Shown: piece by piece, positions 4,066-60,382 of the stretch
Numbering within the stretch: position 1 is the first letter of the stretch
Layout of the letters: each line of letters opens with the position of its first letter
DNA from: Ginglymostoma cirratum
Lineage: Eukaryota
Length of the DNA stretch: 64,000 nucleotides
Assembly (NCBI GenBank): GCA_024137785.1
Contig: JAHRHZ010000059.1
Span: forward strand, 19,658,213 to 19,722,212
Direction: 5' to 3'
Position numbers and translations under genes: made by a program
The notes under the pieces: generated by a model
What the model saw: the letters and a program-made list of their open reading frames with translations, nothing else
Told to the model about the DNA's origin: nothing
The model's database searches: none

Positions 4066-6434
4066 ATAGAATTGTGAATCATTAAATACCAGTTAATTGA
4101 TATCTAGCTGTAGGTCTCACATTATCCTGTTTGACTGAACCAGTTCAACTGGCCCTTCCTATTGGATCCATTACATCTAGTGAAATCAACAGTTCAAATG
4201 CTTTCCAGTGACTGGCACTAGTTGAACTGGACTTCGTTTCCTCATTGTGAACTGTCTGAGCTGGTAGAAGGTTCAACAAGAGTTATGTCCTTTCTTCAAA
4301 GTCTCTACTTCCCACTTCCCTTTCTTGGTTTAATATTCTTAAATCTCAACACTAACAAAGCTGTTGGTAAGCCTGCTATTAGCTCCTTCTTTGATGGACT
4401 GTCCTTTCTTTTTCTCTTATGTCTCTGCAAAGCATCTGAAAATTGCTTTATATGCCAAAGCCACCATATTATTGCAAGTCCTCATTGCTACCGATCTAGA
4501 GCAGGCATGTCACACAGTACCAATAAATTTGTAGAGATAATTGAATAGTTGTGTTAAGACTTTGGAGAAAGATAAGAGGTTTCAACTGGATTTGGAGAAC
4601 TTGGGGCAGAGGGACAAAAATTGATAAATACCTTTTAATATATACATAACTGCACAGTTCTACACCCAGATGCAAATCCGGACTGCAGCTTAAATAAGTG
4701 TTGCTGTTATTCACAAGATGTTAGAGGAAGTATCTGATACAAGTCAATTTCGACTGAAGAGAATTGGATTTTGGGTTTATTCCCTACAAATTTAAGGCCT
4801 CTCTGATAATCAGGTTTATAAGGCTTAAAAAGGGTATGGAATTAAATGCAACGTTATTTATTCTACGTCAAGAAAAGCAATGCAACAAAAATAATGAGAA
4901 CATCTTCACCCCACCTGCACTGAAGGTGGAATTTGCGTCATTGATTGACCAGTCAACCGTAGACTTGGTAGGTATGTGATTGCACATTATTAAGGATGTT
5001 GAATCAGTCTGTGCAAAGTGATGGGGCTCTGTAGAACTAGAGAAACCCATTTTAATTGTAAAGCGAGGGAGCTTGGATATTCTGTTATTTTGTTTTCCTA
5101 AAGGAGGCAGCTTGTAGTGCACGGCTGCCAATTAAGATAGGAGTGGGATTTTACTCTTTACAATCTCTCAGAAAGGTGTTAGATGCATTCTTGAAAAATG
5201 GTGCGATCACACAAAGAGGTAGGAGATTATTCTACCTAACAGCTAATGGCTTTAGGATCTGTTCATTTATGCTAGATCATCTTTCAAAAATTGAAGAAGG
5301 GATCTTTGATAGAGAATTTTTGAATTGGTTATATGGATCTCTTCTTTAACCAGGAGATAGAAAGGACAGGGAAATGAAGGTAAGAGAAACAAGTTAAATG
5401 AGGCAAATGTTTGTTGGCCTGTTGGGGTATTCATTCTAAGTACACAAACCTCTGTGGTCAGAAATGAAGATCTGCGTACTTTCAGAAGTTTCAAAAGACT
5501 TATTAACTGGAACAGAGAGAAACGTAAGAGACCTGTATCCTTTTTTTAATTGTCTGCTGAGGGCATGGTAACCTGATCACTGTGGTGATGTAACAAAGTA
5601 TATGGAACATATTTGTCTGGTGTTTCTATGCAGCATATTTATTGTGAGGAGCAGAGATGTGTAATTCACGTATTCCTGATTATGGACATGATCTCTCTGG
5701 GACCTTGCACCTCCCTGCTGGTTCAGTGGGAATTTTAGAATAAGAAGACACTTGTGATTCAGTAAAGAGGCATGCATTTGAACTCTGTGATTAACAGGAT
5801 ACCCACACACGAGTTCCCGTGTAGATTGCCAGGATCTGCGTATTTGGCATTCTTGGTATCTTAGTGAGACTTACCTCACAATTTTTTTCCTATCTCACCA
5901 TTATTTTGTATTGGGAATGGTATCCAAGTTGGAGTACAACACATTCCCCGCCTAAATGATGTTATTAGAACATTTAACAAAGCATGAACCAAATATCATT
6001 ATGTAATCAGAACTTTGTTTGCTTTGATCTTGAATCAAGTTGAAATTATGTTTAGACTTGGCTCCAGAGCATTTGTATACGATAGTCGCATCATTTAAGT
6101 TACACTGGATTTGTTTTTCTCACAGTGAATGCATTTTTATAAAACGAGACTTTGTTTTAGCTCATGAGCTTAGCATATTAGAAATGGTTATGTTGTGAAT
6201 AACAAGTGTTCTTGAAGTGAATTGCAGGCTTGAAGGATTTTTGAGATGTTTCTGAAGTCATAGACTCTCTAAAATGGGCGAACACCACATTGTTGTCACC
6301 TATAACTCAACACACTACAAAACAGTTCCATCCACTGCCATTCGAGCTAGTGTGGTTAAATTCAAATCTGTTGGATCTTATTTAAGGTTACATACTTGAG
6401 TGCATCAGTTATATTCAGGGGACTGGTCTTTTCC

Positions 6435-6591
6435 GGGCCTAAACCCTTCATCAGAAATCATTTCTGATGAAGGGTTTAGGCCCGAAACGTCAAGTTTTCC
6501 TGCTCCTGTGATGCTGCTTGGCCTGCTGTGTTCATCCAGCCCCATGCTTGTTATCTCGGATTCTCCAGCATCTGCAGTACCTTTTATCTCT
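6435..6591 (+). mobile_element. Penelope-like family A insertion with inverted 5' arm and 14-bp TSD
   Basis: TSD GACTGGTCTTTTCC at 6421-6434 and 6592-6605. Perfect 24-bp inverted repeat 6435-6458 / 6460-6483. Confidence 0.8.
6461..6494 (+). ncRNA. Minimal hammerhead ribozyme motif (intact core), family A
   Basis: TTT-CTGATGA-A-GGGT[TTAG]GCCC-GAAAC-GTC^AAG: conserved CUGANGA and GAAA boxes, stem II, palindromic ACGU stem III, GUC triplet 6489-6491, short stem I UUU/AAG. Confidence 0.7.
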
Positions 6592-7520
6592 GACTGGTCT
6601 TTTCCTTTCCATTTCACAGTGACTTATTTAATTTACTCACAAGTCACAGCTTTATTTTTGCCTGTTTTTCTCCCTTAGTCCCCAGTCACATTGAAATATG
6701 GATCCTCGGCTATAACCGATCTTGCTGGTAACCCATTCAAATAACAACTGATCAGATGTGTACCCAGACCCTTGTTTTAAAACAAAGTCTGTTCTACGAA
6801 AATGCATTCACTGAGAAAACAGCACAAATCCATTGTGACTTAATGATGCAACTATCATATTCAAATGCTCAGTCTAAATGCAATTTCAGCTTTGTTCACG
6901 GAATTATACATTGTTAGCAGGGTCAGCATTTATGGCCCATCCCTAAATCCCCTTGAGGAGATGACATCGAGGAACTTTCTTATAGCTGAGTGATGTGCTA
7001 GACATTTTCAAAGAACAACCAAGAGGCATGCACGTTGACTGGAAGAGTGAAATGGAAGACAGACCAGGTCAGGATGGCAGACTTCCTTCCCCGAAGGATA
7101 TTATGATTTAACACTGCAGCAATTACCTTGCCATTCACTACTGGTACTAGGTATCCACAATGCCAGATTTATTTAGTTAACTGCATTTCAATTCCCAGCT
7201 GCTACTATAAGACTTGAATTTATGTTTCTGAATCATTAGTCCAGGAATATAACTACTATTTACTGTTCCCAGTGATTGGAGTGTTTTTATTTTACCACTG
7301 CAGGTACAAATCAAACTGAGATCCATTCAGTCTTACGTTCCACCTGAGCTCACTGCCTATGAACCAAGATTGCATCAATTACTAACTGAGAGAAATTATT
7401 CAGTGTGATACTCCAGTTCCTGCCCTGGCAGAGACCCACAAGTTCATCAAAGACCAGAGGCTGAACTTTGTAAAAAAAAATATATGTTCAAGGCAATTAA
7501 GTAAAAGGTATACAATAGAC

Positions 7521-7813
7521 TGGCACAGTGGCTCAGTGGTTAGCAGCCAGGGACCCAGGTTCAATTCCACCCTTGGGTGACTGTCCGTGTGGAGTTTGCA
7601 CATTCTCCCTGTGTCTGCGTGGGATTCTGCTGGATGCTCTGGTTTCCTCCCACATTCCAAAGATGTGCAGGCTAGGTGGATTGGCCATGCTAAATTGCCC
7701 CAAGTGTTCAGGGATGTGTAGATTAGGGGGATAGGTCTGGGTGGGATGCTCTGTGTGTCGGTATGGATTTGTTGGGCCGAAGGGCCTGTTTCCACACTGC
7801 AGGGATTCTGTGA
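7521..7813 (+). mobile_element. HE1-type V-SINE
   Basis: tRNA-like head (GTGGCTCAGTGG, GGTTCAATTCC), V-domain CCTCCCACA..CCAAAGATGTGCAGG..AGGTGGATTGGCCATGCTAAATTGCCC, CR1/HER1-type tail. Confidence 0.85.
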
Positions 7814-8261
7814 TAAGCTATTCATAAATGAGTGATTTTACAGATGTCAGGTCCACTTTCTGGCAGCGTCTAAGACTGACCTGTGCACTCTCACTCTCTC
7901 TGCCTCTCTCTCTTTTTCCCCATCTTTGTCATCTTGATCCTACTCCCGTGCAGCTTCTAGTTATTTCGTTGTAACACAGTCTAAAATTAATTTGTCTTAA
8001 ATTTGTCCTTTGCGAATCTGCCTACACCAAATGGACTTCAGCAGTTCAAGAGATAACGCATCACTTTTCCAAAATCAACTAGGAACAGGTAATAAATGCT
8101 GGTCAAGTCAGCAACATCCACAATCCCTTGAATTATTTTATTAAACATCATTTGGTTTGAGTGCCATCTAAGCTTCTAGTTTCAAATCCTGGTCTTTAAT
8201 TCAAAGTTTCACCACTCTGTTTTAGTGTTTTAGAAATAACAGCATTTCAGTCACTATCTCC

Positions 8262-8551: not shown

Positions 8552-8900
8552 GGGCAGTGCAGTAGCTCAGGGGTGAGCACTGCTGCCTCACAGCGCCAGG
8601 GACCTGGGTTCGCTTCCACCTTCGGGTGACTGTCTGTGTGGAGTTTCCAAGTTCTCCCCGTGTCTGTGTGGGTTTCTTTTGGATGCTCTGATTTCCTTCC
8701 ACAGTCCAAAGATGTGCAGGTTAGGTGGATTGGCCTTGCTAAATTGTCCCGATGCGTGTAGGCTAGAGGGGTTAGCCATGGGAAATGCAGGGTTACAGGG
8801 ATAGGGTGGGGGGAATGGATCTGGGTGGGATGCTCCTTAGAGGGTCAGTGTGACTCGATGGATCGAATGGCCTGCTTCCACACTGTAGAGATTGTATGAT
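8552..8900 (+). mobile_element. HE1-type V-SINE
   Basis: Same head, V-domain and tail. Confidence 0.85.
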
Positions 8901-10440
8901 ACAATGAAGTGCTGCAATGGGGTGGTGGCCTTGACTGTGTAATATCATGAAAGGTGCAGTATCAGTGTAATAAGATTGAGCATTGCATGATTTGCTCATT
9001 TCCCCTTACAGCGTGTCCTTGACTGTAATATAGAGATGGATTGGGACATTGGGAGACTTCCTGGCCACCTCCATAAATAGCTGCAATGCTCTGTAGTACA
9101 ATATGACCATTTTCTGCGAGATTCCCATGTTCATATTTTGGGGGGTGTAGGATGAGGATGGCTTTCCACTGGTTATTCATTGAATTCAGGGTCAGTTAGA
9201 TGGAATCCTGCCTCCAGCCCATTTTCAATGGGGGCATTGTGTGGACGCAATTTGCTGTCCAGGCCATAGGCTCCTACCTGTGCATAGCAGGGCTAAAAAG
9301 ATCTTGGAGTCGAGGGTGGAGAGGATGAACTATTTTGAATACGTATCAAATCTCCTGAGCTATAGAGTGAAATAAATCCATGCAAATCCTTGCATGATCA
9401 TTCAAATTTAAATCTATGCTTTCCTGCCATGGGAATGACAGCAAGTGAGCTGAACAAGGTGTTCCTGCCCCATTGAATGCTCAGTCCATTGTTTCCAATT
9501 CTAGACCATCCCAGCCAGTATAAAGCCCCGTCTCTGCTGAAGAAATATTGCTCCCCGTACTCTCATTACCTGCAGATGTCTCGGATGTTTGATATTGAAA
9601 GACTCTGGATGGGTAAATCCCACATTGGGATATCAGTGATGGAGTGACAGCTCTTCCCATACCTCGCCACCCACCAAGTTCAAATCATAAGACGCATGCA
9701 TCGAATATGGGCCAATCTGGAGTGAGAGTTGGCATAGTTTTAGTCTAAAGAGTGGTAAATTTAAAACAGGGATGAGGAACAATTACTCTTCTCAATGAAT
9801 TTGTGAAATTCACTAACCCAGAGTGCACTGGAGCAGAATAGCTTTAAGGAGTAGATATTTAATTAGCAATAGATTATGGAGAGCAGGCAGGAGAATGGAG
9901 TTGAGTCTGAGATGAGTTTAGCCATGATCCCTCTAAATGGCAGAGCAGGTTCAATGGGCAGGACTACCTACTCCTGTTCCTAGCTCTTAAATTCATCTGT
10001 TCAAATAGTGTTGAACTATCTGTTGACTTTGAGGGTTGCATTGCTAGATTGTGGAAAGCACTGCGGCCATAAAGCTGCAGACTGGCCACCCTCCATTAAT
10101 AGGATGGTGACACCTATTTCACCTCATTGCTGCACGTTACTGCTGCTTACAACTCTGCCCTAAATATGAATATTGTATTAAAGTATCTGTTTAAAACCCA
10201 TCGCAGGAATCAATTTGAAGTTGCCCATTTTGCTTTCCTTCTTTCATTGGTAGGGATGATTCCAGATCGATTTGTTGTGTGATCTGACTCATTAGTGCCA
10301 CATAACAACTCAAATCTGACCATGTGATACACTAATGAAGTGTACAACATCACAGGAAGTGATACAATGTCACATGATCTTGCTCTCGCTGTGACAGACT
10401 TTATGGCAAAGTGGAACAAGTGTAATAAACAGTCACATTT

Positions 10441-10475: not shown

Positions 10476-11432
10476 GGGGCAGCACCGTGGCTCAATGGTT
10501 AGCAGTGCTGCCTCACATAGCCAGGGACCTGAGCTCAATTCCACCTTCAGATGACTGTGCAGAGTTTGCACATTTTCCCTGTGTCTGTGTGGCTTTCCTC
10601 CAGTGCTCCAGTTTCCTCCCACAGCCCAAAGATGTGCAGGTTAGGGTGGATTGGCCATGCTAAATTGCCCATATTAAGGTGTGGAGCTGGATGAACACAG
10701 CAGGCCAAGCAGCATCAGAGGAGCAGGAAGGCTGACGTTTTGGGCCTAGACCCTTCTTCAGAAATGAAGGCTGGTCTTGGTTTGCAAGCTCATTGAGGAG
10801 CAAATATACCCAACGCTTTCCTTGCAGTTTAACACATGCTATCCCCAGTAGACTTCTTGTTATGCGTTGCACTATCAATTGGATTCCTGCTCAAAAGTGA
10901 TAGCCCATTCTTGTGAAAGTCGAATGGACCCAGTGTATTGGCCCTATTGGACGGCTTATGATTGTTCGCAAAATTGACTATAGAATCACTACAGTGTGGA
11001 AGCAGGCCATTCAGCCCATCAAGTCTACACAGACCCTCTAAGGAGCATCCCACCCAGACCCATACCCCATGTAACCCTGCATTTCCCATGGTTAATCCAC
11101 CTAGCCTCTACACCCTGGACAACATGGGCAATATAGTAGGAACTGCAGATTCAGAAATGAAGAAGGGTCTAGGCCCGAAACATCAGCCTTCCTGCTCCTC
11201 TGATGCTGCTTGGCCTGCTGTGTTCATCCAGCTCGATACCTTGTTCTCTCAGATTCTTCAGCATCTGCAGTTCCTACTATATTGCCCATGTTGTCCAGGG
11301 TGTACAGGCTAGGTGGATTAACCATGGGAAATGCAGGGTTACATGGGATATGGGTCTGGGTGGGATGCTCCTTAGAGGGTCTGTGTGGACAAGATGGGCT
11401 GAATGGCCTGCTTCCACACTGTAGTGATCCTA
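10476..11432 (+). mobile_element. HE1-type V-SINE split into 10476-10672 and 11281-11432
   Basis: The halves join seamlessly across the ATTGCCCAT duplication. Confidence 0.8.
10673..11280. mobile_element. Palindromic family A insertion splitting an HE1 SINE and containing an inverted duplication of its own flank
   Basis: TSD ATTGCCCAT at 10664-10672 and 11281-11289. Element arms ~10675-10766 (-) and ~11157-11280 (+). The interior 10768-11150 is the reverse complement of 11263-11536 plus an extra ~110 bp. Confidence 0.8.
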
Positions 11433-11795
11433 TAGTCAATTTTGCGAACAATCATAAGGGGATAGCATGTGTTAAACTGCAAGGAAAGCGTTGGGTGCAT
11501 TTGCTCCTCAATGAGCTTGCAAACCAAGAGCAGCCTCGACTCAGGTTGTCCAGCAATGCCTGTCTTCCATGTGAACGTTGACACTGCATTGGTATTTGAG
11601 AGTTGCACTTCACAGATTGGTCCTGAATTTGTCTCAACCACGCCAATCAAAATTAGTAATCGCCAGACTGTGCAACTTCACCAAATGCATAGTTTGCTGC
11701 AAAAATATCTTTTTTTGAACTAATTTGTATTAAAAAAAAACTTGTGGTTTTCCCAACCTATTTTTACTTGGATTGTCAGTGGTCATATGTCAATT

Positions 11796-18296: not shown

Positions 18297-19168
18297 TATT
18301 ATGGACCAGACCAGATCCCCTCAAACCATTTAAGAATGTAACCTAGACCCTACTTTTTTTCTTATTTTTAAAGGCAAATGTGAAGTGCCTGCTCCAGATG
18401 CAATGCGACTGGTCAAACTACTCAATGTTGGGCAAAACACAGTTTATTTAAACACTGTAGTTAAAATACAATCAAAGAAGGAGGAAGTTAAAATAACTCT
18501 ACTGGAAAATTTAACAGAGTAATAGATACAGTACAAATTACTGACTAAAAAACAAAAGAACTACAGATGCTGTAAATCAGGAACAAAAACAGAAGTTGCT
18601 GGAAAAGTTCAGCAGGTCTGGCAGCATCTGTGAAGAGAAAATCAGAGTTAACGTTTTGGGTCCAGTGACCCTTCCTCAGAACTTTTATCTGAGTGGACCT
18701 GAAACGTTAACTCTGATTTTCCCTTCACAGATGCTGCCAGACCTGCTGGGCTTTTCCAGCAACTTCTGTTTTTGTACCTATTACAAACTAACTATTCCAA
18801 CATAGTAACATCCCATACACACACCCCTTAGTAAAAAGGTTAATTCAGACTCAGACAGTCACATGCGGTTCTCCAATCCAGGAGGGGGAAAAAAATCAAC
18901 AGAAAATTCAGACAGAGTAGCATTCAGGAGATATTAACTGAAGCATCCAACTTTGTTGAGACTCCAAAAGCTTCCGACGCCACTGAGAAGCCAAAACCCG
19001 GAAATCCTGATTGGTGGGTGCTGGCCACACCCATTCAGGCTGCATTAAAAAAAAAACAAGGCCTCCCAAGCTGTTCACAATACTCCAGACTGCTCTGTGC
19101 CTCTATCTCTCAACTTCTCTTCAAAAGAAAAGGACAAAATAACCTCTTAAAGTGACAGCATTGCCACA
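18297..19168 (-). mobile_element. Solo LTR (~630 bp plus nested family B element)
   Basis: TSD TAGT (18293-18296 / 19169-19172); reverse-complement homology to 23164-23795. Confidence 0.7.
18546..18778. mobile_element. Palindromic Penelope-like family B insertion inside a solo LTR
   Basis: Arms ~18581-18664 and ~18694-18778 are reverse complements. Minus strand has AGTT-CTGAGGA-A-GGGTC[ACTG]GACCC-AAAAC-GTT-AACT (GAAA box mutated). Confidence 0.75.
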
Positions 19169-20888: not shown

Positions 20889-21187
20889 ATCGTAGAATCC
20901 CTCTGGCATGGAAGCAGGCAATTTGGCCCATCAAATCCACATCAACCCTCTGAAGAGCATCGCACTACCCCATGGCCAATCCACCTCGCCTGCACACTAT
21001 GGACAATTTAGCATGGCCAATCCACCTAACCTTCATATCTTTGGACTGCGGGAGGAAACCAGAGCACCCAGAAGAAACCCACATAGACACAGGGAGAAGG
21101 TGCAAACTCCACAGATGGTTGCCCAAGAGGGGAGTCAAACCCAGACCCCTGGTCCTGTGAGCCAGTATGCTAACCACTGAGCCACCT
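20889..21187 (-). mobile_element. HE1-type V-SINE inserted in an older DeuSINE-like copy
   Basis: Reverse complement of the HE1 motifs; DeuSINE-like remnants on both sides (~20785-20850, ~21205-21435). Confidence 0.8.
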
Positions 21188-23163
21188 TGTCACCTTGCTT
21201 GGTAAATTACCAAATTTGGTTTAGATATTGGATGAGAGGTAGATATTGGCCTAAGATTTTAAGGAGAAAGCCATATATTTTCTTCAAATACCATAATGTA
21301 TTTTATGTTTTATTTTATTTTCTGGTAGTTTACTGTTTCATGCCAAAGACAGTAGCTGTGTTGATGCTTCAGGGAATGGGATTTGACCCACAACTCTCTC
21401 ATTCAAAAGGTGAGAATATTAGCCACTGAGCCACAGCTAGTGTCAAACCACTTGGTGAGTGATAGGTGACGCCTAATCAAAGGAATGCGTAATTTCAAGA
21501 CGTGTTCCTATCATAGCAACCAAAAGCTGAATCTGGTGCTTGTTAAACTGGTTTCCCAGACCCATTCACAGAGCATTTAGACTGCTTGCTGCCGAATTAA
21601 GCACTAGTAAATATCTAGAATTCTGACCCTGAGTGTTTTTGTTTACAAATTAAAATAAATGCTCACATGTTCCTGTGTTTAAACTGCTTTTCAATTGAGC
21701 AGAAACAAGTTTAAAGATTAAATACATAAGAGAGCAGGTTTTAGACCCCTGAATGACCTCCGTTTTTGAAAAGTCAGCGATAACATTGTCTTTGACAGCT
21801 GCTGAATGCACGGGTTCCTTTCCTGGGATTTACCTGGCTCCATGTTTGAAATGAAGGTTGCTTGATCCCTGGGACAAATTTTGATATGTTAAAATAAAAA
21901 CGCCAACTGTGTGAATTTATGCAAACTGGATGATCAGCAATGAATAACGTCAACATGTGCCAAGATAAAGCCTCTGTGAATGTGCCCGCTTTCCCCCTTT
22001 CATTATCATTTCTCCGTGTGCGTGCGTACATGTGGCACAATCCCAGCATTGAGCCACGCAGCTTCCTACTCATTGGTAACTGGCATGATTTTATTACATG
22101 GAAAGCAGTTGTGAGAGGTCGCCGTCTTAATGAACAGTATGCTTTTGTCTATTATTTATATATATTACCTCGCTTCTGCCCCTCTTGGCATCGCCTTAAA
22201 AGGGGAAAGTGAGAGCACGTCTGCCAAGGTAGTTGTTTGATATCCCATCACTTTTCTTTGTTGATATAGAAACATGAAAGAAGACTTGGGCTAATCTTTG
22301 CAGGCAATGGATTCTTTGTCAATAAGCTGAGAATGCAGCCACTTCAAATAAAAGAAATCTTTTAATGCAGCTGCATAATAAATTTAATGAAGCAATCCTC
22401 CCGCAGAAACATTTGCAGCAAAAACACACAGTTCCTAATCCTTGCCCAACATTTGCTTGAAGAGAATCTCGACTAAAGTCTTGATAAACAAGTTCAATCA
22501 GGTCAAACTGGGACCATTGTAGAAATAATGTACTTTTTGGATTTCTTTTTCTCTTGTGACTGGGACATTTGTTCTCGTTCACCCTGGGGAGAATGCAGCG
22601 CTCAGTTGCACGACATTTTTTGAAGAATCCTATCTCAGGTAAAAATAAAAGGGAGAATGTTCTGACTGCAACGTTTCCCTTTAAAGGGTTAGCTGTTTGA
22701 TGTGGGCACTTTGATGTGTTTTTGGTACCATGTTTCTCTTGCCACAGACTCAGAGGTAAGTTGGTTCAGCTTTATTTTAATCAGATTTTATTTTTTGGGT
22801 TTTATAGCTTCAACGATGGTGACTTGCTTCACATAATCACTGGAGCTCCTGGCTTGGAAATTTGAAAATGAAAATGAAAGATCAAAGCTACCGCATTAAA
22901 GGCTCAACCCTGACTTTTGGACTATCCATTCGTCATTCTGTGCCGTTAACTTTTCATGCAATGGTATTAGATCTCTCCTTTTCCCAGTTCAGCCACTTTC
23001 TTTATTCTTTTTATAGGACATATGTGTCACTGGCAACCCAGCATTTGTGGCTTAACTTTAATATTCCTTGAAGTGAATGGTTTGCTGGACCATTTCAGAG
23101 GGTCGGTGTGAGTCAACCATGTGGATGTGGGTCTGGAGTCACATGTAGACCAGATCAGGCAAG

Positions 23164-24694: not shown

Positions 24695-24832
24695 GTTTCT
24701 GTGGAAGGGTCACCAGTCCCGAAATGTTAACTCCGATTTGTCCTCACAGATCCTCCCAGACCTGCTGAGCTTTACCAGCAAATTCTGTTTTTGTGTCTGT
24801 TTTACAGCATCTGCAGCTCTTTCGGTTTTGAT
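24695..24832 (+). mobile_element. Family B single arm with decayed hammerhead
   Basis: TTTCTGTGGAAGGGTCACCAGTCCCGAAATGTTAAC followed by CAGACCTGCTGAGCTTTACCAGCA and the tail. Confidence 0.7.
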
Positions 24833-26120: not shown

Positions 26121-26302
26121 GTGAATTGAGTAGCCCTTTATAATACCTCGCTCAATGCTCTACTTCATTGAAGTCATTGGTTGAAGTGTGCAACTATTTC
26201 ACTGCTGCACATGTTTCCCCTTCCAAGACAACTATCCTCAAACAGTAGTCAACAGAAGGAATGAAGAACAGGCAGTTCAGAAACAATTAGAAGCCATACT
26301 GC

Positions 26303-26622
26303 AGAGCATGGTGGCTCAGTGGTTAGAACAGCTGCCTCAGAGCACCAGCAACCCAAAGGTGCCATTTCAGCCCTGGCTAACTGTCTGGGTGGATTTTACA
26401 CATTCTCCCTGTGTCTGTGTGAGGCTTCCCCCAACAATGCAAAGATGTGCATGTTAGGTGGATTGCCCATAGTATCCAGGAGCGTACTGGCGAGGTGGAT
26501 TAGCCATGGGAAATGCAGGGTTACAGGGGTAGGGCTGTGGGTCTGGTTGGGATGCTTTTTGGAGGGTTGCCATAGACTTGATGGACTAAATGACCTGCTT
26601 CCACATGTAGGGATTCCTATAA
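26303..26622 (+). mobile_element. HE1-type V-SINE
   Basis: GGTGGCTCAGTGGTTAG head, CAAAGATGTGCA, tail GCTTCCACATGTAGGGATTC. Confidence 0.8.
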
Positions 26623-27539
26623 TTCATCTGGACAGGTGATCTGCAGTACACCAAATTCTGTTGCCCATCACAATAGTCATGTATATCTCTCTTGAAAGAA
26701 CATGCATAGTAGAACCTAAACTTGCAGTGGTAAAGATTAGCTGTTATCATTTTGCTTCACATTTGCCGATTTTGCTGCTGTAATAGTGTCCTAACGCAAC
26801 ATCTTATGCCACCAAGAGAAAAATCAAAGTTGAGGTTGATTTCCCCAGAAATGCTAAAGCTATCACTGGTGTTCTGGAGGAACCTGGGATTCTTCTGGCT
26901 CCAGGTTTCTCTCTTGTGTTGCAGCCTCTCTCCATGCAAGAATTGCTCCCTTTCTCAGCCCACACTGTTATAATCAAGCACTGAAGAGGTGGTACCGTAC
27001 CCTAGAGAGTTTGCAGCGTACGCAGACTGGAAAATGCAAAAGTAAAAAGACACTTTAAAAAGTAGCGTCACTGGTCAGTGTGGTCCTCATTGTTGCCTTG
27101 CCAGCTGGTCTTCAGATATTGGGTAGTGGGCCCACTTGGCACCCACTGCAGTCCATTTGACAACATCGTGGAAATTCCAGCTTTGCGCCCGGCAGTAATG
27201 AAGCAATGATGATGTATATCCAAGTTAGGTTGGTCTCTGGCTTGGAGTATACTCAGAAGTGATGGCTGTTGTACATTTCGTATATTTCATTTTCCTCACA
27301 GCAGTGCAAAGATGGCATTACTTTCTGTGTGTGCAGTATATTTTACCCACAATGTTTTAACTCATCTCTGTGGCTGCTAATTGTCTGTGCTCATTCTCAC
27401 AGTTCAGCTTCTAATTGCTTCTCCAGTGCCTGGTTACTTTGATTTGTGCCAACTCTGAATCTTGGTCTATCAAGCACAGTGAGCAAGATCAGTGACCAGA
27501 CTCACATACACAGGAGAAATGAACACTGTTAACTGCCAC

Positions 27540-27744
27540 AAAAAGACAGAAATTGCTGGAAAAGCTCAGCAGGCCTGGCAGCATCTGTGGACAGAAATCA
27601 GTGTTAATGCTTCAGGTCAAGTGTTCTGAGGTCACTTGACCTGAAACGTTAACTCTGATTGCTGGCCAAAGATGCTGCCAGGCCTGCTGAGCTTTTCCAG
27701 CAATGTCTGTTTTCGTTTCTGATTTACAATTCTTTCAGTTTTAT
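27540..27744. mobile_element. Palindromic family B insertion
   Basis: Inverted arms ~27543-27623 and ~27633-27713. TSD ACTGTTAACTGCCAC (27525-27539) / ACTGTTACTTGCCAC (27745-27759). Confidence 0.75.
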
Positions 27745-28938
27745 ACTGTTACTTGCCACTTTTGTTCTTCTAGGCACTTGATCTTGCAAATTCATAAGGA
27801 GCTGTTGAATGACCGCTGTCGAATCACTGCAGTCTATCCTACAGATTCATGTACGCTGCGGACAGTGTGCCAATACTGGAGTGAGTGGGTGTTTAAGGAA
27901 TTCATTTCGCCACCAATCAAGTCATCCCAAATGCCGCAGATCCTTCTCGAATATTGTCACAGTTGCCTGTTTCCAACCAGGTAGTTTGTATTCAGGAGAT
28001 AATCCACTCCCACTTCAGAACATCTGACCTACCTCCAATCAGCTCTTGTAGCCATGTCTATGTATTGAACTTCTTTGATGTGAAGAAACAAAGTATACTG
28101 AGTCTACATCTGCACAAAAGTTTAGATCCTTACCTTGGCCAATCAGTTTTTGTTAAAAAAAAGAGACGGTCTTAGTTTCTCTCTCCCTTTTCTCTCTTAT
28201 CATCAGTTGCTCTGCCTGCAGCTGAAATTCCTGATTTTGTTTTCCTGTTTTTCGAAAAATAATAAAATGTGAACATTATGTGGTATTTCCTGCTATAGAG
28301 AAAGCAAACTTTACCTTCATTTCCATGCTTTGGAACCATTCCCTCTTTCAGTATTTCTCTCCTCTGTGATCTTATTCCTATGTTGCATAGAAAGGAGAGT
28401 AGGCCATTCAGCCCCTCAAGCCTTTTCCACCATTCACTGAGACCATTGGCCTAATTCCATAAACCTGCCTTTGGCCCTTATCCTTTTATAGCTTTGTTTT
28501 CAGACCAATTTTCACGCCACTCCCACCCTTTCAGTTCCAGAATTCCCAAACCAATGGAAGTTGTTATCTACTCTTCATTTTCTTATTAGTATCTTGAAGA
28601 TATTTTGAAGATGTAGGTATTACTCTTTGTCTGTTTTCATCTTCTATTACATTTCCCAGCATCTCTTCATCCTGGTGTTTTATCTTTTTGTCACTCTCTC
28701 CTTATGCCCTTTATTTTCTCTTCAATTTTCACTCCCTACATCTCTGTTACCCTTTCCTTGTATTGTTCTTCTGTCCAATTCTGCATTTCTTTCTCGCTTG
28801 CTGTCCCATAGCCTCTTGAGCGGCTGATCACTGCATGGTTATTTGCAATTTTGGAACAAAAATAGAACAGGACTGGATAAGAGTTCTGTAACTTGTACAG
28901 GGAATGCCATCAAGTAGGGGATCTACCTAAATACAGAA

Positions 28939-29153
28939 ACAAAATCAGAAGTTGTTGGGAAAACACAGCAGGTCTGGCAGCACTTGCGACAAAAAAATCA
29001 GAGTTAATGTTTCGGGTCCAGTGACCCTTCCTCAGAACTCAGTTCTGAGTTAACTTTGACTTTTTCTTCACAGATGCTGCCAGACCTGCTGAGCTTTTTC
29101 AGGAACTTCTGCCCTTGTTCCTGATTTACAGTATCCGCAGCTCTTTTGGTTTT
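28939..29153. mobile_element. Palindromic family B insertion
   Basis: TSD TACCTAAATACAGAA (28924-28938) / TACCTAACTACAGAA (29154-29168). Inverted arms. Confidence 0.75.
29001..29040 (-). ncRNA. Minimal hammerhead ribozyme motif, family B
   Basis: Minus strand GAGTT-CTGAGGA-A-GGGTC[ACTG]GACCC-GAAAC-ATT^AACTC: 5-bp stem I, 5-bp stem II. ACGT has decayed to ACAT. Confidence 0.65.
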
Positions 29154-29399
29154 TACCTAACTACAGAACTTGCCCTGCTCATCATCGTGCAGCTGAGATT
29201 AGGGTCTGATCAGATGTGGAGTTATGGATGTGAATCCAAGATTACAACTGAATGACAAGGCACATATAATAATGAATTCACCTCATTACAAATCTACATC
29301 ACCAAATTTAATGTATTCGAAATGATGGTGTAGTGAGCTGATCACCAGTGGAAGCTAAACTTAGCCTTGACTGATGGAAAAATAATACCTTCTAAACAA

Positions 29400-35155: not shown

Positions 35156-35482
35156 GGGTGGCATGGTGGCTCAGTGGTTAGCACAGCTATCTCACAGGTG
35201 CAAAGGTCCTAAGTTCAATCCCACCCTCAGGCAACTATCTGTGTGGAGTTTGCACATTCCTCCCTGTGTCTGTGTGGGTTTCCTCTGGGTGCTCCAGTTT
35301 CCTCCAAAAGTTGTGCAGGATAGGTGGATTGGCCGTGCTAAATTATCCATCATGTGCAGGTTAGCCATAGAAAATGAAGAGTTACAGGGATGGGGTGAAT
35401 CTGGGAGGGATGCTCTTCTGAGGGTCAGTGTGGACTTGATGGGCTGACTGGCCTGAACCCACGCTGTAGGGATTCTATTCTG
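35156..35482 (+). mobile_element. HE1-type V-SINE
   Basis: Same motifs. Confidence 0.8.
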
Positions 35483-37224: not shown

Positions 37225-39780
37225 TTTTATTCATTCACAGGATGTGGGTGTTGCTAAGTGGGTCAGCATTTATGTCCATTGTTAATTGCACTTGGGAATG
37301 TGTGATGGTGCAATGTTGTCCTGAGGCACAACAGTCACTGATGAGTAGGTCCACCGAGAATGTTACTTGGAAAGAAGTTCTGATATATGACCCAGTGACG
37401 TAAAGGAACATCAATACAGTTCCAAGGCAATGTGGTGAGTGGCTTAGAGGGGAACTTGCTGGTGTTGGTTCCCATATGAAACTCCTGCCTTTGTCCTTCT
37501 AGGTGATAGAAATCGAAGGTTTGGATTGTGCTGTCGAAGGAACATTGCTGAGTTGATGCAGTACGTCTCGTGAATGGTACATGCTACTGCCATAGCTTAT
37601 TGACTAATAAAAAATTATTAATTGTGTGTAGAAGATGGGGGTTGGGTGCCAGTCAAACAGGCTGATTTGTCTTGAATGGTTCGAGCTTCCTGAGTGTTGT
37701 TAGGGCTGCACTCATCCAAACAAATGAAGGGTATTCTATGATAGTACCGACCTATACATTTTAGGTACTGGACTCAGAATGTGAGTTACTTAGCACAGAA
37801 CCCCTGACCTTGGTGGTCCCATTCAATTTCCTGTCGATGGTAACCTTCAGGATGCTGGTAAGAGAGGATTCTGTGATGGCAATTCCATTAAATGCAAATA
37901 ATTGCTTCGTAGTAGGGAACTTAAAAATCAATAAAAAAAAAAGGGACATGAAACTTAAACTTTTTATGTCGGACTCATCAGGACTAGAACACAAGAAACC
38001 AGACAAGAAAAGGAATATCAATTTATACAGTATGACTATTTATATAACATTTGTACCAAATTTATCTTCTCATGCTTTATAAATTCACATTTTTTTTAAA
38101 GTTTGCATGCCGATGAGTGAAAAATTAAAGAAAATTGAAGGTCAAGGAGGGATGGTTGGATTCAGTCTTGTTTGAAATGGCCAGTGTGTAACATCTAGTG
38201 TGGCATGAATGTTGCTAGCCATATATCAACCTGAAAATTATCCACATCCTGTTGCACCGGCACATGGAATGCTTCACTATCTAAGGAGTCGCAAATGGTG
38301 CTGAACACTGTAACATCATCAGTGAACAATCCCACTTCTGACCTCAGAACGGGGGAAGGTCATTGACATAAGTGTGCGAACATTCAAACATAAAAACAGT
38401 GAACAGAATTAAGCTGCTTGGCCCTTTGAGCCAGCTCTGCATTCAATAAAATCAGAACTGATCTGATTTTGACTTCATTCTACATTTCTGTATTTTACTG
38501 ATAACCTTCATTCCTCTTGGTAATCTAGAACCCTTTCACCTCTACCTTAAAAATATTTAGAAATTCTACATCCACTGCCTTTTGAGGAAAGGAATTCTAA
38601 AGACTCTCAACCATCAGAGAGAAAACTCTCATCTTTGTCTTAAATTGGTGACCCATTGTTTTTAAATTATAATCTCTAATTCTAGATTGTCCCACAAGAG
38701 GAAACATTATTCTGACATCCATCTGGTCAAGTCCCCTCAGGATTTCAGGGTCAAGTAGCTGAAGATGGTTAGACCTAGGGCTACCCTGAGGAACTCACAA
38801 AGATATATATCCTGTGGCTGAGTTGATTGATCTCCAATAACTACGATGATCTTCATTTGTGCTAGGTATGACTCCAATCAGCAAAGGATTTTCTCATTGA
38901 ATCCAATTTTGACGCCAAACTGAATCTAATGCTGCCTTAATGTCAAGGACAGCAATCCTCTCTTATCCTGTATTAAGCCTTTTTTGTTCATGTTTGGAGC
39001 ATGGTTGTATGAAAATAAGGATTTATCTGGACCTGGCTGAACCTACACTGCACATCAATAAAAAGGTTAATGTTAAATAGGTACTGTTTGACAACACTAT
39101 TGACAACACCTTCTATCAATTTGCTGATAATTGAGAAGGGACTTGCTGGGCAATAATTGGTTGGGTTGGATTAGTCCTGATTTTTGTGGACAGGACATGG
39201 CTTGACAATTTTCCTTATTATCCAGTAAATGTCAGAGATCACTGGATTCACTCATTGCCTGGCTCTGGTGTGGTCTAATTATTACTGGCCACTTGTCAGC
39301 TCAAGCCTGTAATATTGTCCAGCTCTTGTTTCATTTGGATATGGACAACTTCAGTACCTGAGGAGTCATGAATGGTGCTGAACATTGTGCAATCGTTGGT
39401 GAACATCCCCACTTCTGACCTTATGATGGAAGGAAAGTCATTGATGAAACAGTTGAAGATGGTTAGGCCTAGGACACTATCCTGAGGAACTCTTGTGTTG
39501 ATGGCTTGGAGCTGAGATGACTGATCACCTACAACCACAACTGTCTTTCTTTGTGTTAGGTATAATTCTAACCAATGGAGCCTTTTGCCCCCATTCCCAT
39601 TGAATTCAGTTTTGCTAGAGCTCCTTGATGCCATGCTTAGGTAAATGCTGCATTGATATCATGAGCAGTCATTCTAACCTTGCCTCTGGAATTCAGCAGT
39701 TCTGACCACATTGCCTGTAATGAAGCCAGGAGTTGAGTGGTTCAAGTGGAATCCAAAGTGAGTATCAGTGAGCAAGCTAT
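37225..39780 (-). mobile_element. Same LINE family: two overlapping fragments (37225-39240, 39290-39780) with a nested CR1 piece (~38370-38750)
   Basis: RT motifs VPQDSVLGLTIFNCFINDFPSIIRSEVGMFTNDCT (PQGSVLGP / FADD-like) in ORF 39296-39634. Confidence 0.75.
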
Positions 39781-42415: not shown

Positions 42416-43029
42416 GTGAAGTTCCCTCCAAAACAAGTGACTTTGCTGTATATTGCACATTTGCATTTTGTTTCTTTTCTCAAAGGCATCTTCGATAGAC
42501 TTGTATGCACCAATCTTCAAATGTTTTCCGTCGATAGCAAAACTGAAGAGAGTTCAGATTCCATGTGGCGACAAAATTTGAGAAGCAGTACTAACAAAAA
42601 GACAGTAACTGAACTGCCTGCATTATTCAAGAGGATGTCTTCAACTCTTCATATTACTCAAACCTTTGATTTGTATCAATGGAATCTGGTTCTCATTCCA
42701 TCTGTCAGCCTGTATTGAAGTAGGCAGACATTACTTCAACATCTTGAATATTTCAGGCTTTCTCCTCCCCGCTCAGTGACTGAATTATTGGCAAAACCAA
42801 TTCGTTCATTCCTCAGTTGTATAACCTAGAAATCCATTCTTGCTTCATGTGATACCCTTTAGTTTTGTTATGGATGCTCCTTTGGAAAGTGGGGAGCTCA
42901 GCCATTTTACTTGAACTTGTGCCTTCCTAATCACCTCAGCCCCTATGGCAGATTTAAATTTGGAGTAGTTTTCTCATGGGAGGTTAAAATTAGAAATTGC
43001 TGACCCAATTCAGTTATAGATGTTTCATT

Positions 43030-43227
43030 TACAAGGTGTGGAGCTGGATGAACACAGCAGGCCAAACAGCATCATAGGAGCAGGAAAGAAAGCATTTCTG
43101 ATGAAGGGTCTAGGCCTGAAACGTCAAGCTTTCCTGCTCTTTTAATGCTGCTTGGCCTGCTGTGTTCATCCAGGTCCACACCTTGCTATCTCGGATTCTC
43201 CAGCATCTGCAGTACCTATTATCTATC
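43030..43227 (+). mobile_element. Palindromic family A insertion with 14-bp TSD and hammerhead motif
   Basis: TSD ATAGATGTTTCATT at 43016-43029 and 43228-43241. CTGATGAAGGGTCTAGGCCTGAAACGTC at 43098-43125. Short inverted arm 43031-43088. Confidence 0.8.
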
Positions 43228-43479
43228 ATAGATGTTTCATTGCCTGTTTATCACTATACATTCTCTTAAAAATGTAGGCAGTTCAGTTGCGGTCTCTTTG
43301 TTGGTAGTTCATCAAGTTTTGTTGCTACTTTGAAAGTGAGCCCCCTTCAGTGTTAATATCAATGGAAAAGTGTAGTCACAGCTTCCCATCTCATTTATGG
43401 TATGAAACACCCTTTCTATGTCAACGTAATTAACCTTAAAAGATTCTGTTATTTTTGGGTTTGAATCAATTAAGAGCTT

Positions 43480-49545: not shown

Positions 49546-50800
49546 ACATGAATTAAGCACTAATGACTTTTTCTAAGTGTTTCAGTAATTAAAAGGCAAA
49601 AAGGTAATATTCCTGGCTGTAAGTGTAGAATTACCTAAAGAAATAATTTTGTCTGAAGAGTGAGTATGAATATTAAAGAGATATAACATGACCTTTTGCA
49701 CAAATCAATAGACATGAAAAGTGCACATGACAACATTTTTCATGAGTTGAATATTACTAAAACAGTTTATGAGCAATGAAAATTTTGTTAGCACAATCTG
49801 ATTCTTAACTCTAACAAATTTTGGTCTTCAAAAATAAATTATGTATCTGTTAATTTGTATGGTTATCAAAATAAGAGTGTAAAATACATTTTTGCTTTGG
49901 TAGGTAACCACATTACTGGATTTCAATTTCAGTTTATGTTCAGGAGCACCAATATTTCAGTCTTCTGACGCTGGAAGAAATGCAAAAGTTGACTCTGGCA
50001 CATCTAGTGGTGAAAATTTGTCATAATTCCTACCCACTTCCAAGGACAGCAGGAATTCCTAACAACACAGCGATTGTACCTGCAGCAGTTCAAGCAAGTG
50101 GCTCACCACCACCTTCTCAAGGGCTATTAGGGATGGGGAACAAATTATGGCTTTGCCAGTGACAGTCACATTGCATGCCAGCTTTTTTTTAATGCATCAA
50201 ATTAATTTACATTCTTTAAAATCTTTTTTTGAAGGAGACAAGAGTTCATACACAAACTGATTCTCTTTAACGTATCAACATTTTCCTTTATTTCATTCTG
50301 ATTGAGATACCTTGGTTTTGGAGTCAACAGACAAAAATGTTGAGGGAACTCGATAAGTTTGACGCCAATAGAAGAGAAGATCATCACCAGTGAATATAAT
50401 TTGAAAATGACACTCTTCAATTCTAGGGTATTAATACGTTTCTCTGTTGGCTGTAATGCTGAGCCATAAATATTGCAAAGCATCCAATTGTATTTCGACA
50501 TGTCTGCAAATATAGTTGAAGGATTTGAGCTGGCAAATATAGTTCAAAACATCTCATGGCTACTTAGCTAATAATTGTCTTAGTGGATGGTCTTTTATCT
50601 TCAATGAGACCCTTAATACCATGAACTTTTGTGCGAAAATTGATGTATTCCAAGTGACACCCCCAGGCATGTTGCATCACAAATAAGCTGTTTAATTTCA
50701 ATGTGCACATGCTTTTCAAACATTATGATGATGCAGGAGTGCATGTCTGTAGCCAAAGGTGAGACGCTTTTGTATTAAAGTGGCTTTGAATTTGATCACA

Positions 50801-51415
50801 GATAATAGGTACTGCAGATGCTGGAGAATCTGGGATAACAAGGTGTGGAGCTGGATGAACACAGCAGGCCAAGCAGCATCATAGGAGCAGGGAAGCTTGA
50901 CGTTTCGGGCCTAGACCCTTCATCNNNNNNNNNNNNNNNNNNNNNNNNNNNNNNNNNNNNNNNNNNNNNNNNNNNNNNNNNNNNNNNNNNNNNNNNNNNN
51001 NNNNNNNNNNNNNNNNNNNNNNNNNNNNNNNNNNNNNNNNNNNNNNNNNNNNNNNNNNNNNNNNNNNNNNNNNNNNNNNNNNNNNNNNNNNNNNNNNNNN
51101 NNNNNNNNNNNNNNNNNNNNNNNNNNNNNNNNNNNNNNNNNNNNNNNNNNNNNNNNNNNNNNNNNNNNNNNNNNNNNNNNNNNNNNNNNNNNNNNNNNNN
51201 NNNNNNNNNNNNNNNNNNNNNNNNNNNNNNNNNNNNNNNNNNNNNNNNNNNNNNNNNNNNNNNNNNNNNNNNNNNNNNNNNNNNNNNNNNNNNNNNNNNN
51301 NNNNNNNNNNNNNNNNNNNNNNNNGATGAAGGGTCTAGGCCCGAAACGTCAAGCTTCCCTGCTCCTATGATGCTGCTTGGCCTGCTGTGTTCATCCAGCT
51401 CCACACCTTGTTATC
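50801..51415. mobile_element. Young palindromic family A insertion spanning the assembly gap
   Basis: TSD TTGAATTTGATCACA at 50786-50800 and 51416-51430. Arms 50834-50924 and 51325-51415 are exact reverse complements. The left arm carries the extra tail 50801-50833. Confidence 0.8.
50925..51324. other. Assembly gap (400 N)
   Basis: Run of N. Confidence 1.
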
Positions 51416-52489
51416 TTGAATTTGATCACATATCCCTTCAGCATGATACACCCAACAGGTTTAAATTCATTTTTTCCCAATAAATATCCAGTGTTAAACT
51501 TCGTTTCAAGGTTCTTTTGTATTAATTTGTACTAAAATAAAAATATTAGGCTGCATAGTTTCATTGTAAACTTGAATTCCGAATTTAAGTCTATTGTATA
51601 GTGAAAGTGTTGTTGAAGCATTTTCAAACTGAGTGCTACAGTACAGCATTGTTGTCTAATGAGCTTAAATTTCAAAAATCACCTGTAGACCAGATTAAGG
51701 ATACCCTGTATCCTGCATAATCCTATACCTCACATACTACTGATTGTTTTTTACTGAGGCCTGGAAGGGTTGTACACTAAGTAGCTGTTTGCAAATCAAA
51801 ATTATTTCTTCACAAGTAATATAAAATATCATTTTAATTAGAGATTTGCTTTCATTTTTACATGGTTACCAGTAAATCTCCAAAAACTAAATTGCTGTTG
51901 TCAAATTTCTCCAAAGCAATTGAGTTGAAGTGGTGATCTAAATGGATAATATCCGGAAAATGCAATTTACAAACTAATAAAGCTGCTTCTGTGTTCTGGC
52001 TGGATTGAGTCTCACCTCCTGCGACTTGCATTATCAGCTCGATCTGTGACTGAGATCAGTGGAACAGTTCAAAGCAACAATAAAAGTAATCTGCACCATA
52101 ATAATTTTGATTAAAATTTGCTGTGTTGATCCTAGATAAGCAGCCTCTTAGCTGTCAGCATTTAGGGTTGTGATTTGTTGTCAAATTTAGACTTTACCTC
52201 TAGCATTTGGCAAAAAGACGGAGCAACAGCAGCTGTTGCAGCTTCAAGAAGTGGAGAGGCAAGATCTTGTTCCCCAGCTCCAACCATCACAGAATAAGAA
52301 GCTGCAAGTACCCAGTGTGAGGAATGTAGCACCAACTCAATCAGATGTAGGGGAGTGTTACGGTGGAGGAGGTTTCCCTTCCTGCTTGGAGAAACCAATG
52401 TTTGCTGGACTATGATGCCAACCAATGCCTTTCCCAAGGGGCCATATATCACACGTTTGCTTAGGCAATGGGTATAGTGGATTAATGAT

Positions 52490-53321: not shown

Positions 53322-53395
53322 TGGCCTGCTGTGTTCCTCCAGCTCCACACTGTGTTATCTCTGACTCCAGCATCAGCAGTTCTTACTATCTCTGA
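53322..53395 (+). mobile_element. Family A variant terminal fragment
   Basis: GGCCTGCTGTGTTCCTCCAGCTCCACACTGTGTTATCTCTGACTCCAGCATCAGCAGTTCTTACT, nearly identical to 55034-55098. Confidence 0.65.
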
Positions 53396-54879: not shown

Positions 54880-55160
54880 CGGAAATGCACACAGCAGAAT
54901 TTGTTGGAGAAACTCAGCAGGCCTCAACAAGGGTCACCGGACTTCAAACGTTAACTCAACTTTCTATCTCCAGAGACGCTGAAGAAGGGTCCCGACTCGA
55001 AACGTCAGTTTTCCTGCTCCTCTGATGCTTCCTGGCCTGCTGTGTTCCTCCAGCTCCGCACTGTGTTGTCTCAGACTCCAGCATCGGCAGTTCTTACTCG
55101 CCCTGCCGGACCTGCTTGAGTTTCTCCAGCAATTTCTGGTTGTGTGTAATCCACAGCATC
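54880..55160 (+). mobile_element. Family B palindromic element with a nested family A variant (54979-55098)
   Basis: B-type arms (GGAGAAACTCAGCAGG / CCTGCTTGAGTTTCTCC) are interrupted by CTGAAGAAGGGTCCCGACTCGAAACGTC (hammerhead core 54979-55006) and the A-type tail. Confidence 0.65.
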
Positions 55161-58558: not shown

Positions 58559-59510
58559 GTAACGCGGGCACAGGAACAAGTGTGTGTTTGTGAGAGAGAG
58601 AGAGAGAGAGTGAGTGCATTCTGCTACAGCCTAACCCAGGACTCAGGAAAGAGACAGAGCACCTGTACGTCTGCTGTCCTTCCAGACAACCCCCACCACT
58701 CCTCTCAACTGTCTGATGTGTCCCACTCCAGACAGATAAAGCAGCTCAGACAAACATAAACAAGGCGGCTCTCTCTCACACACACACGTGTGTGTGCATT
58801 TTTTTTTGGTCTCCCTTGCTTTATTTAATTCCTTAGTTTTCCTCCTAAGAAAATTATGTCATTCCACTTCTTGGTTGCTGACTCATTCAGAATTAAAGTT
58901 AGATTTTTTTTTAACTAGTCTGCTTCTATGTTTTTGTTTCACTCTTTACACACTGGAAGGAAAATCTTTTTTGTTTCAAATTTTACATCTTTCCACTCCT
59001 TAACCTTATGTCATTATATTGCTCTCCCTATTTTTGCCCCCTTAAGTCTCTGATCTGTGTGTGTTTGTGTGTGTGTGTGTTTTACTATTTGTGATCCCGT
59101 AATAAACCCCGTTTCTCTCTCTTCCCCCCCGTCTCAGAGACACGATGACCGCCGGTAGACGTTCTCTGATGGCGCTCTTGCTCTGTCAGGTTTTATTCGG
59201 AGGCTCGGCCGGACTCATCCCCGAGGTGGGCCGCAAGAGATTCGCCGAGCAGTACGCGAACTCGGCTCCCCCGCAGACTGAGGACCTGCTGCAGGAGTTC
59301 GAACTGCGGTTCCTCAACATGTTCGGCCTCCGGCGCCGCCCTCACCCCGCCAGGAACGCAGTCATCCCTCAGTACATGGTGGACCTGTACCGGCTGCACT
59401 CGGGCGAGGAAACCGAGCGGGGACAGGCGACTGACACCTGGGTGCTGTCCCAGTTCCCCGAGAGGTCGGCCAGTCACGCCAATACCGTCAGGAGTTTCCA
59501 CCATGAAGGT
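57950..59510. promoter_or_regulatory. CpG-island-like region over BMP2 exon 1 and the first coding exon
   Basis: CG dinucleotides are visibly frequent (57950-58570, 59140-59510) compared with the CpG-depleted upstream desert. Confidence 0.65.
59145..59508 (+). CDS. BMP2: BMP2 coding exon 1 (signal peptide and N-terminal prodomain)
   Basis: MTAGRRSLMALLLCQVLFGGSAGLIPEVGRKRFA...EFELRFLNMFGLRRRP...YMVDLYRLHSG...ANTVRSFHHE matches the BMP2 N-terminus. Polypyrimidine tract and AG at 59136-59137, 7 nt before the ATG. Phase-1 donor G|GTAAGG at 59508/59509. Confidence 0.96.
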
Positions 59511-59747
59511 AAGGGGGAGGAAAGGTGAGGCGACTCAGGTAGCCTCAGTGACACCTCACACACACATACACCAACAAAAAAAAGCCCCAAGCTCTCTCAG
59601 TCTGGGGGATAAGATCAAAACCTGTCACACAAATCATCCCTAGGCGACAACGTAGCCACATACAACACACAGGTAAACTTCAGCTCTATAGGTGCACAGC
59701 AGACAACTCCATGCACGCTCCTGTCCATAGATCTCGGCACGGATTCT

Positions 59748-60205: not shown

Positions 60206-60289
60206 TAGACAGCCTACCTATTCTTGGGGGGTGCCTGCTTGAAATCAAGATTGCACACTTGTACTATCCATCTCACCGATACTCTTTTG

Positions 60290-60382
60290 AAACAAAAAAC
60301 AGTGTTGGAGAAACTCAGCAGGTCTGGCAGTAACTGTGGACAGAGAAAGCAGGGTTGTTGTTCCGAGACCAGTGACTCTTCT
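60290..60382 (-). mobile_element. Family B-like fragment in BMP2 intron 2
   Basis: GGAGAAACTCAGCAGGTCTGGCAG...GTGGACAGAGAAA...CCAGTGACTCTTC. Confidence 0.55.

Follow-up and report, generated by a model that had tools for sequence, protein, structure and literature searches.

The insertion at 6421-6605 and its hammerhead motif

Within the 64,000-nucleotide stretch of Ginglymostoma cirratum DNA analyzed here (contig JAHRHZ010000059.1; hereafter the window), positions 6421-6605 hold a short insertion that carries a minimal type I hammerhead ribozyme motif, and repeats related to it are dispersed along the DNA around a BMP2-type gene. We assign these repeats, with a probability of about 0.85, to the terminal repeats (pseudo-long terminal repeats, or pLTRs) of an endonuclease-bearing (EN+) Penelope-like element (PLE), a retrotransposon of which they would be pieces. 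The original prediction, made from the letters of this DNA, had given 6421 and 6605 as the limits of the element; these are the outer edges of its target-site duplications (TSDs), and the insertion proper spans 6435-6591. Its parts are listed below, with C3 denoting the first base of the ribozyme core.

6421-6434 (+): left TSD, 14 bp, identical to 6592-6605
6435-6458 (−): short inverted arm, repeating in reverse the part of the unit that runs from −4 (counted from C3) through helix II
6459-6591 (+): forward unit, pLTR-like, about 130 nt, with its start 5 nt upstream of the core
6460-6495 (+): minimal type I hammerhead, in line with the consensus given in PMC4209133 (supplement)
6460-6463, 6464-6470 and 6471 (+): helix I 5′ strand, CUGAUGA and the extra A
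6472-6483 and 6484-6487 (+): helix II (4 bp plus tetraloop) and GAAA
6487-6490, 6491 and 6492-6495 (+): palindromic ACGU, C17 and helix I 3′ strand
6560-6591 (+): approximate "tail", a 30-40-nt piece that forward arms carry and long inverted arms lack
6592-6605 (+): right TSD

The 14-bp TSD is perfect, and the same search applied to 150 random positions returned no score above 10. The 24-nt inverted arm at 6435-6458 pairs as a perfect hairpin with 6460-6483, and the forward unit is identical at 132 of 135 bases to a second copy on the opposite strand, at 1663-1797.

The motif shows CUGANGA, a single extra nucleotide and then G10.1, as in the metazoan PLE hammerhead consensus CUGANGAH-G..C-GAAAN-palindrome-NUH (PMC4209133; statements on published work refer throughout to the consulted portions of each source). 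C17 falls at 6491, where the original prediction had placed the cleavage. Eight arms of family A, to which this insertion belongs, could be parsed, and six of them carry the core GAAACGUC, with GAAA, palindromic 15.1-16.1 and an N17 that is H. The closing pair 10.1-11.1 is G-C in six arms and G-U in two, and 96.9% of the helix II cells are paired. Helix I measures 4, 4, 3 and 2 bp in four arms, within the 2-5 bp looked for, and consists of weak A-U and U-G pairs; it has 0 bp in the 54979 and 11158 arms and is unreadable in both arms beside an assembly gap.

Searching the window with the sequence pattern on which the original prediction was based gave four exact matches (1765-1792 on the minus strand; 6464-6491, 43098-43125 and 54979-55006 on the plus strand) and eight matches at up to two mismatches, compared with none in 100 dinucleotide shuffles. 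Four of the six loci that had been named as copies are exact; a fifth, in the arm at 10734-10761 (−), has G12>A as its sole departure noted, and the sixth, at 50899-50926 (−), is cut by a 400-N gap that masks C3-U4. The matches with two mismatches are at 11157-11184 (+) and 51323-51350 (+). A descriptor of the published PLE minimal hammerhead likewise found four matches in the window and none in 100 shuffles. Rfam at its gathering score returned no hammerhead match across the 64 kb, so that the proposed hammerhead search succeeded with the PLE descriptor and came back empty from Rfam, whose silence is unsurprising because the motif lacks helix III. With E values up to 10, Rfam gave 11 weak matches in 6300-6700, none of them a hammerhead; the sub-threshold microRNA-type and other matches there were rejected as fold-back hairpin artefacts. 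A covariance model built from the eight arms, which recovers those arms by construction, found no new complete copy in the window.

Related copies and their ends

BLAST and profile searches, in which the best shuffled score remained below 8 bits (10 shuffled windows per profile), identified seven family A loci and ten homologous loci of the diverged families B, C and D. Over 63.6 kb this amounts to roughly one locus per 3.7 kb, compared with one copy per 4-5 kb in the original prediction, and with hand-set limits the repeats occupy about 4.7% of the bases; only four arms, however, have a complete visible core. The main copies are the following.

1663-1797 (−): family A unit, core complete, with a G10.1-U11.1 wobble from CpG decay
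1798-2025 (−): pyrimidine-rich stretch upstream of the 1663 unit, single copy in the window
10674-10767 (−): family A inverted arm without tail, G12>A
11133-11159: internally deleted inverted stub preceding the next arm
11158-11280 (+), within 11133-11280: family A forward arm, G16.2>A, no C3 left at the junction
18546-18779 (both strands): family B head-to-head pair, G12>A
24697-24832 (+): family B solo unit, core damaged
27531-27745 (both strands): family B head-to-head pair with part of the core deleted
28928-29155 (both strands): family B head-to-head pair, G16.2>A, TSD of about 14 bp with 1 mismatch
43032-43227 (+): family A head-to-head pair, 14-bp TSD (43016-43029 and 43228-43241), forward arm with a complete core and G-U at 10.1-11.1
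50801-51415 (both strands): family A head-to-head pair across the 400-N gap, 15-bp TSD (50786-50800 and 51416-51430), arms identical at 90 of 90 bases
53322-53395 (+): 5′-truncated family A fragment without ribozyme
54979-55098 (+): diverged family A copy, core complete, helix I 5′ strand absent

Head-to-head pairs are found at four of the seven family A loci and three of the four family B loci, so that the inverted 5′ copy by which PLE membership was judged is present in both families. TSDs of 14, 14, 15 and 9-13 bp flank four of the seven family A loci, and one family B locus has a TSD of about 14 bp. The 3′ ends of family A are not poly(A), and the repeats thus combine variable TSDs with the lack of poly(A), a further trait used for membership. 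In the family A alignment, all seven forward arms carry the tail and share a common 3′ end, reaching about +125 to +133 from C3, and all three long inverted arms are without it, stopping at +87, +88 and +100. Family B pairs likewise have unequal arms.

These ends also bear on the alternative that the repeats derive from a DNA transposon, such as a miniature inverted-repeat transposable element (MITE), with a palindrome that mimics a ribozyme. Many of the insertions are indeed palindromic; however, the arms are unequal, vary between copies and also occur singly, the TSDs range from 9 to 15 bp, and two diverged families have both retained the core. With neither fixed terminal inverted repeats nor a fixed TSD length, we regard such an origin as extremely improbable.

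The 5′ ends of the arms fall close together. Measured from C3, family A arms start at −5 (6459), −4 (6458), −5 (43093) and −5 (10766), the arm at the 11133-11280 locus starts at −5 to −3 with a 2-nt overlap, and family B arms start at about −4, −4, −3 and −2, with flanks that diverge beyond these points; at 10767, the 3′ flank of the same locus is attached to the −5 start. An arm start between −5 and −1 was observed in 7 of the 10 scorable family A and B insertions (P about 1e-5, using a hand-set chance of 0.1 per insertion), a count that leaves out the gap locus and six diverged loci (one starts there) and becomes 8 of 16 if those are counted. Arms beginning at the cleavage site were considered and rejected, as a single arm (43087) starts near it, at +33. 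The clustering of 5′ starts at the edge of the ribozyme core suggests a fixed RNA 5′ end, and bases −6 to +1 of the 1663 copy fit the initiator consensus. A Penelope start site within the pLTR is known (PMC2377424), and no description of a start site at the edge of the ribozyme was found in the portions of the literature searched.

It is thus conceivable, although we would put the odds at somewhat below even, that the ~130-nt units are full-length copies of the initial part of a Penelope transcript, with the start site 4-5 nt upstream of the hammerhead core and helix I formed from the first RNA bases, rather than random 5′ truncations. Internal priming from both target nicks on this 5′ stretch would yield short cDNAs resembling "strong-stop" products, which could join head to head or jump template and might in this way explain both the pLTRs and the inverted pairs. 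Should this be true, and should solo units keep an internal promoter, they would be masters like those of short interspersed elements (SINEs), needing no ribozyme cleavage. The main competing explanation for the clustered starts is stalling of the reverse transcriptase (RT) at a C-rich tract.

Several side observations concern individual copies. The stretch at 1798-2025, which continues the 1663 copy, is 47% C, and none of 2,526 sampled 228-nt windows was as C-rich; this single-copy stretch is probably the element's own 3′ UTR (untranslated region). The 400-N gap at 50925-51324 lies midway between the arms of a perfect head-to-head pair, and the palindrome probably caused it as an artefact of assembly; the 400 N bases account for a dip in GC content to 0.298 at 50001-52000. 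At 54893-55162, a related palindromic element harbors a nested family A copy, to which it is joined by a short shared motif, in agreement with the tendency of PLEs to insert into PLEs (PMC6765202). Another family A insertion, at 10660-11545, sits in a tRNA-headed SINE, and an inverted copy of about 370 nt of the insertion's own 3′ flank lies between its two element pieces; the flank copies are identical at 262 of 271 bases, and the right copy is without about 107 nt. The cause would be either re-copying of a read-through RNA at this very site or a polymerase jump to the far DNA end. The SINE is presumably HE1/V-SINE-like. A separate ARAGORN scan found no tRNA.

Arms of families B, C and D (18628, 27585, 29073, 29475, 33702, 40923 and related ones) have a pyrimidine tract and YAG right before an ATG about 20 nt past the cleavage site, resembling a splice acceptor, and family A has no such AG. 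Introns are known within PLE pLTRs. Other interspersed repeats, SINE-like by eye and with 5-6 self-matches each, are present at 7521-7815, 8552-8901, 20893-21194, 26301-26621 and 35157-35478.

State of the ribozyme and the neighboring BMP2-type gene

All four core substitutions in family A lie at CpG sites (C11.1>T twice, G12>A and G16.2>A; bases truncated at junctions were not counted), which agrees with the earlier claim that core changes are mostly CpG decay. Since G12 is the general base of the hammerhead (PMC6155905), catalytic positions have not been spared, and at the level of sequence this pattern points to neutral decay. Differences between families A and B, on the other hand, obey the hammerhead rules: they affect free positions, namely N7 (U/A/G), N17 (C/U) and loop II, and leave the core unchanged, and in helix I there is one two-sided change between the families, from U-G to G-C.

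Folding predictions disfavor the active structure. For the 6464 copy, the hammerhead fold has −4.0 kcal/mol as a monomer compared with a minimum of −9.3 kcal/mol, a gap of 5 kcal/mol, and −6.3 compared with −28.8 kcal/mol as a dimer, a gap of 22 kcal/mol. In the read-through transcript of the 6435 copy, a hairpin of −44.5 kcal/mol (z −10.5) covers the whole 5′ half, and the probability of helix I was at most 0.011 in all eight folding contexts. In these models, the ribozyme of the 6435 copy is sequestered by its own inverted arm, and hammerhead cleavage appears unlikely at these loci. Nonetheless, the energies omit core tertiary contacts and help from chaperones or proteins, so that inactivity is unproven. 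Metazoan PLE hammerheads in print are weak cleavers or depend on protein: the Schistosoma monomer did not cleave and its multimers did so weakly (PMC4209133), cleavage of Poseidon_Ac (PAc) from Anolis occurred only with protein (PMC11167929), and PMC6765202 and PMC6155905 agree with poor cleavage.

A self-propagating, non-autonomous retrozyme family would depend on such cleavage, its ~130-nt unit being transcribed, cleaved as a dimer, circularized and reinserted, and copies like these would have to be cut. Non-LTR retrozymes have been proposed to derive from PLE pLTRs and were found in the sole chondrichthyan genome sampled (Li et al. 2026, preprint, 10.64898/2026.07.22.740005); the predominance of short copies in the window and the 98% likeness of the 1663 and 6459 copies would fit. 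However, there is no head-to-tail ribozyme tandem in the window, neighbors being inverted, and the copies end away from the cleavage site, upstream of the core and about 100 nt downstream of C17, with the +33 start of the 43087 arm as the nearest approach. Moreover, only one of nine predicted Xenopus retrozyme dimers cleaved in vitro in the same study. We therefore consider this origin unlikely.

TGF-beta propeptide and mature domains (Pfam) are encoded in two coding exons at 59106-59525 and 62641-63600 (+), and the best solved-structure matches of these segments are BMP2. Every family A copy is located upstream of this BMP2-type gene, at 4-57 kb from its start codon; both orientations occur, and no copy is within the coding span; a decayed related repeat without a core is located at 60288-60383 (−), in the intron. 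With 17 related loci in 64 kb and one complete core about 4 kb upstream of the start codon, one could imagine a co-option in which copies control the gene through cleavage of upstream or enhancer transcripts. Against this stand the mixed orientations, the CpG decay of catalytic bases, the low helix I probability in every folding context and the lack of helix I in the core nearest to the gene. A high local density is also expected, as PLEs are reported to be expanded in the whale shark (10.1101/443036). Co-option is accordingly very unlikely. Because PLEs are thus expanded and are present in all vertebrate lineages (PMC4350176), the proximity of the repeats to the gene needs no special explanation, and their position upstream of it is probably due to chance.

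The proposed Penelope assignment and comparison with known systems

The original identification, a PLE-type minimal type I hammerhead in a Penelope-like family, is backed by three architectural signs: 5′ arms that are inverted, a tail of 30-40 nt on one side and TSDs of variable length. An inverted 5′-truncated copy, a 30-40-bp tail at one end and trouble in assembly are described as PLE signatures (Craig et al. preprint; PMC8557442), as are inverted pLTRs, TSDs of 8-10 bp, junction palindromes, head-to-head order and solo pLTRs (PMC3846280). Membership is argued from architecture and the ribozyme because no defining protein was linked to the repeats.

Several results weigh against this assignment. 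No PLE RT or GIY-YIG motif was found in a six-frame scan of the window, and Pfam applied to its 55 stop-free segments of at least 100 aa revealed no PLE domain, only one weak RVT_1 match, the rest being TGF-beta. Translations of the unit in a single reading frame, used as protein queries in the hope of an RT-linked N-terminus, gave no hit among 2 candidates, among 512 or among 1.84 billion representatives; these are weak negatives, and two GTDB genome scans gave 0 and 0 matches, which are uninformative as GTDB is prokaryotic. No TSD above background was detected at 1663, 53322, 54979, 18546, 24697 or 27531. In helix II, none of the four pairs shows a two-sided change among the eight sequences, and the covariation score was equalled in 7 of 500 shuffles, which is within reach of relatedness alone; in this test 90.6% of cells were paired, and two of the four two-sided cells came from the 54979 copy, whose upstream bases are not part of the element.

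The absence of an RT or GIY-YIG open reading frame (ORF) had been stated in the original prediction and holds for PLEs in all six frames. The lone RVT_1 match, at 39299-39658 (−), has an E value of 0.00066, below the curated cut-off; it was rejected as the PLE parent, as it reads as a degraded RT of the long interspersed element (LINE) type, 1.2 kb from the nearest related repeat.

On the PLE reading, an RT/GIY-YIG protein made elsewhere in the genome would insert the repeats by target-primed reverse transcription. For PAc, both target strands are nicked and extended, reverse transcription begins at two internal RNA sites that bound the tail, and the template is mostly uncleaved RNA (PMC11167929). 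By analogy, staggered nicks 9-15 bp apart would produce the TSD. One nick, as the end positions and TSDs suggest, would prime at the outer site and give the arm with a tail, and the other would prime at the inner site or by microhomology and give the arm without one. Both copies would extend back approximately as far as the ribozyme's 5′ edge and be joined head to head, unless one was truncated. Selection would have kept the hammerhead in source elements, its probable role there being to trim multimeric transcripts or part them from one another, either as a dimer or aided by protein; in the dispersed copies it would be a neutrally decaying passenger, probably without useful cutting. The picture of working self-cleaving RNAs scattered around a developmental gene is therefore not borne out, given the CpG decay, the predicted sequestration at 6435 and the lack of two-sided covariation in helix II.

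Thousands of such hammerhead motifs per genome are reported in the coelacanth and Xenopus (PMC4209133), and the present case warns against treating copies of this kind as gene-regulating ribozymes. In the literature searched, we found no description of this family, an apparently undescribed one from a cartilaginous fish. For the question of how PLEs construct their tandem and inverted ends, a high-copy family with clean TSDs, two classes of 3′ end and sharply clustered 5′ ends offers many natural integration products for testing the model of two nicks and internal initiation.

Among known systems, the non-LTR retrozymes of Li et al. (10.64898/2026.07.22.740005) are likewise non-coding, carry a type I hammerhead, are related to PLE pLTRs and include dispersed monomers, but they are defined by head-to-tail tandems with at least two complete ribozymes, of which the window has none. 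With the metazoan PLE hammerheads of Cervera and de la Pena (2014, PMC4209133), the repeats share CUGANGA, the extra nucleotide between 9 and 10.1, G10.1-C11.1, GAAAC-GUC without loop III and a short helix I, as well as mostly solo genomic copies with some opposite-strand pairs 100-700 bp apart. Helix II is shorter here, 4 bp in family A and 5 bp in family B compared with 7-8 bp in Schistosoma, and the inspected portions of that alignment and supplement contain no chondrichthyan or shark name.

PAc (Frangieh et al. 2024, PMC11167929) shares the GAAACGUC core, the extra nucleotide and a pyrimidine-rich sequence upstream. Its reverse transcription starts 111-118 nt into the ORF, compared with family A arm ends at +87 to +100 and +125 to +133 from C3. 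The ORF of PAc starts at the ribozyme, whereas the AUG of the family A core opens a frame that closes after 14 codons, with no linked ORF; and cleavage of PAc has been demonstrated and depends on protein, whereas the family A hammerhead is a predicted one.

The EN+ Penelope elements of Adineta vaga and Drosophila virilis (PMC3846280, PMC2377424, PMC8557442) differ in that their pLTRs, of about 190-220 bp, usually flank an ORF, whereas the pairs in the window contain no ORF and begin at the ribozyme's 5′ edge. They nevertheless share with the repeats described here inverted pLTRs, junction palindromes, head-to-head order, TSDs and solo pLTRs, and an optional 31-34-bp tail and a promoter and start site within the pLTR are listed among the shared features.

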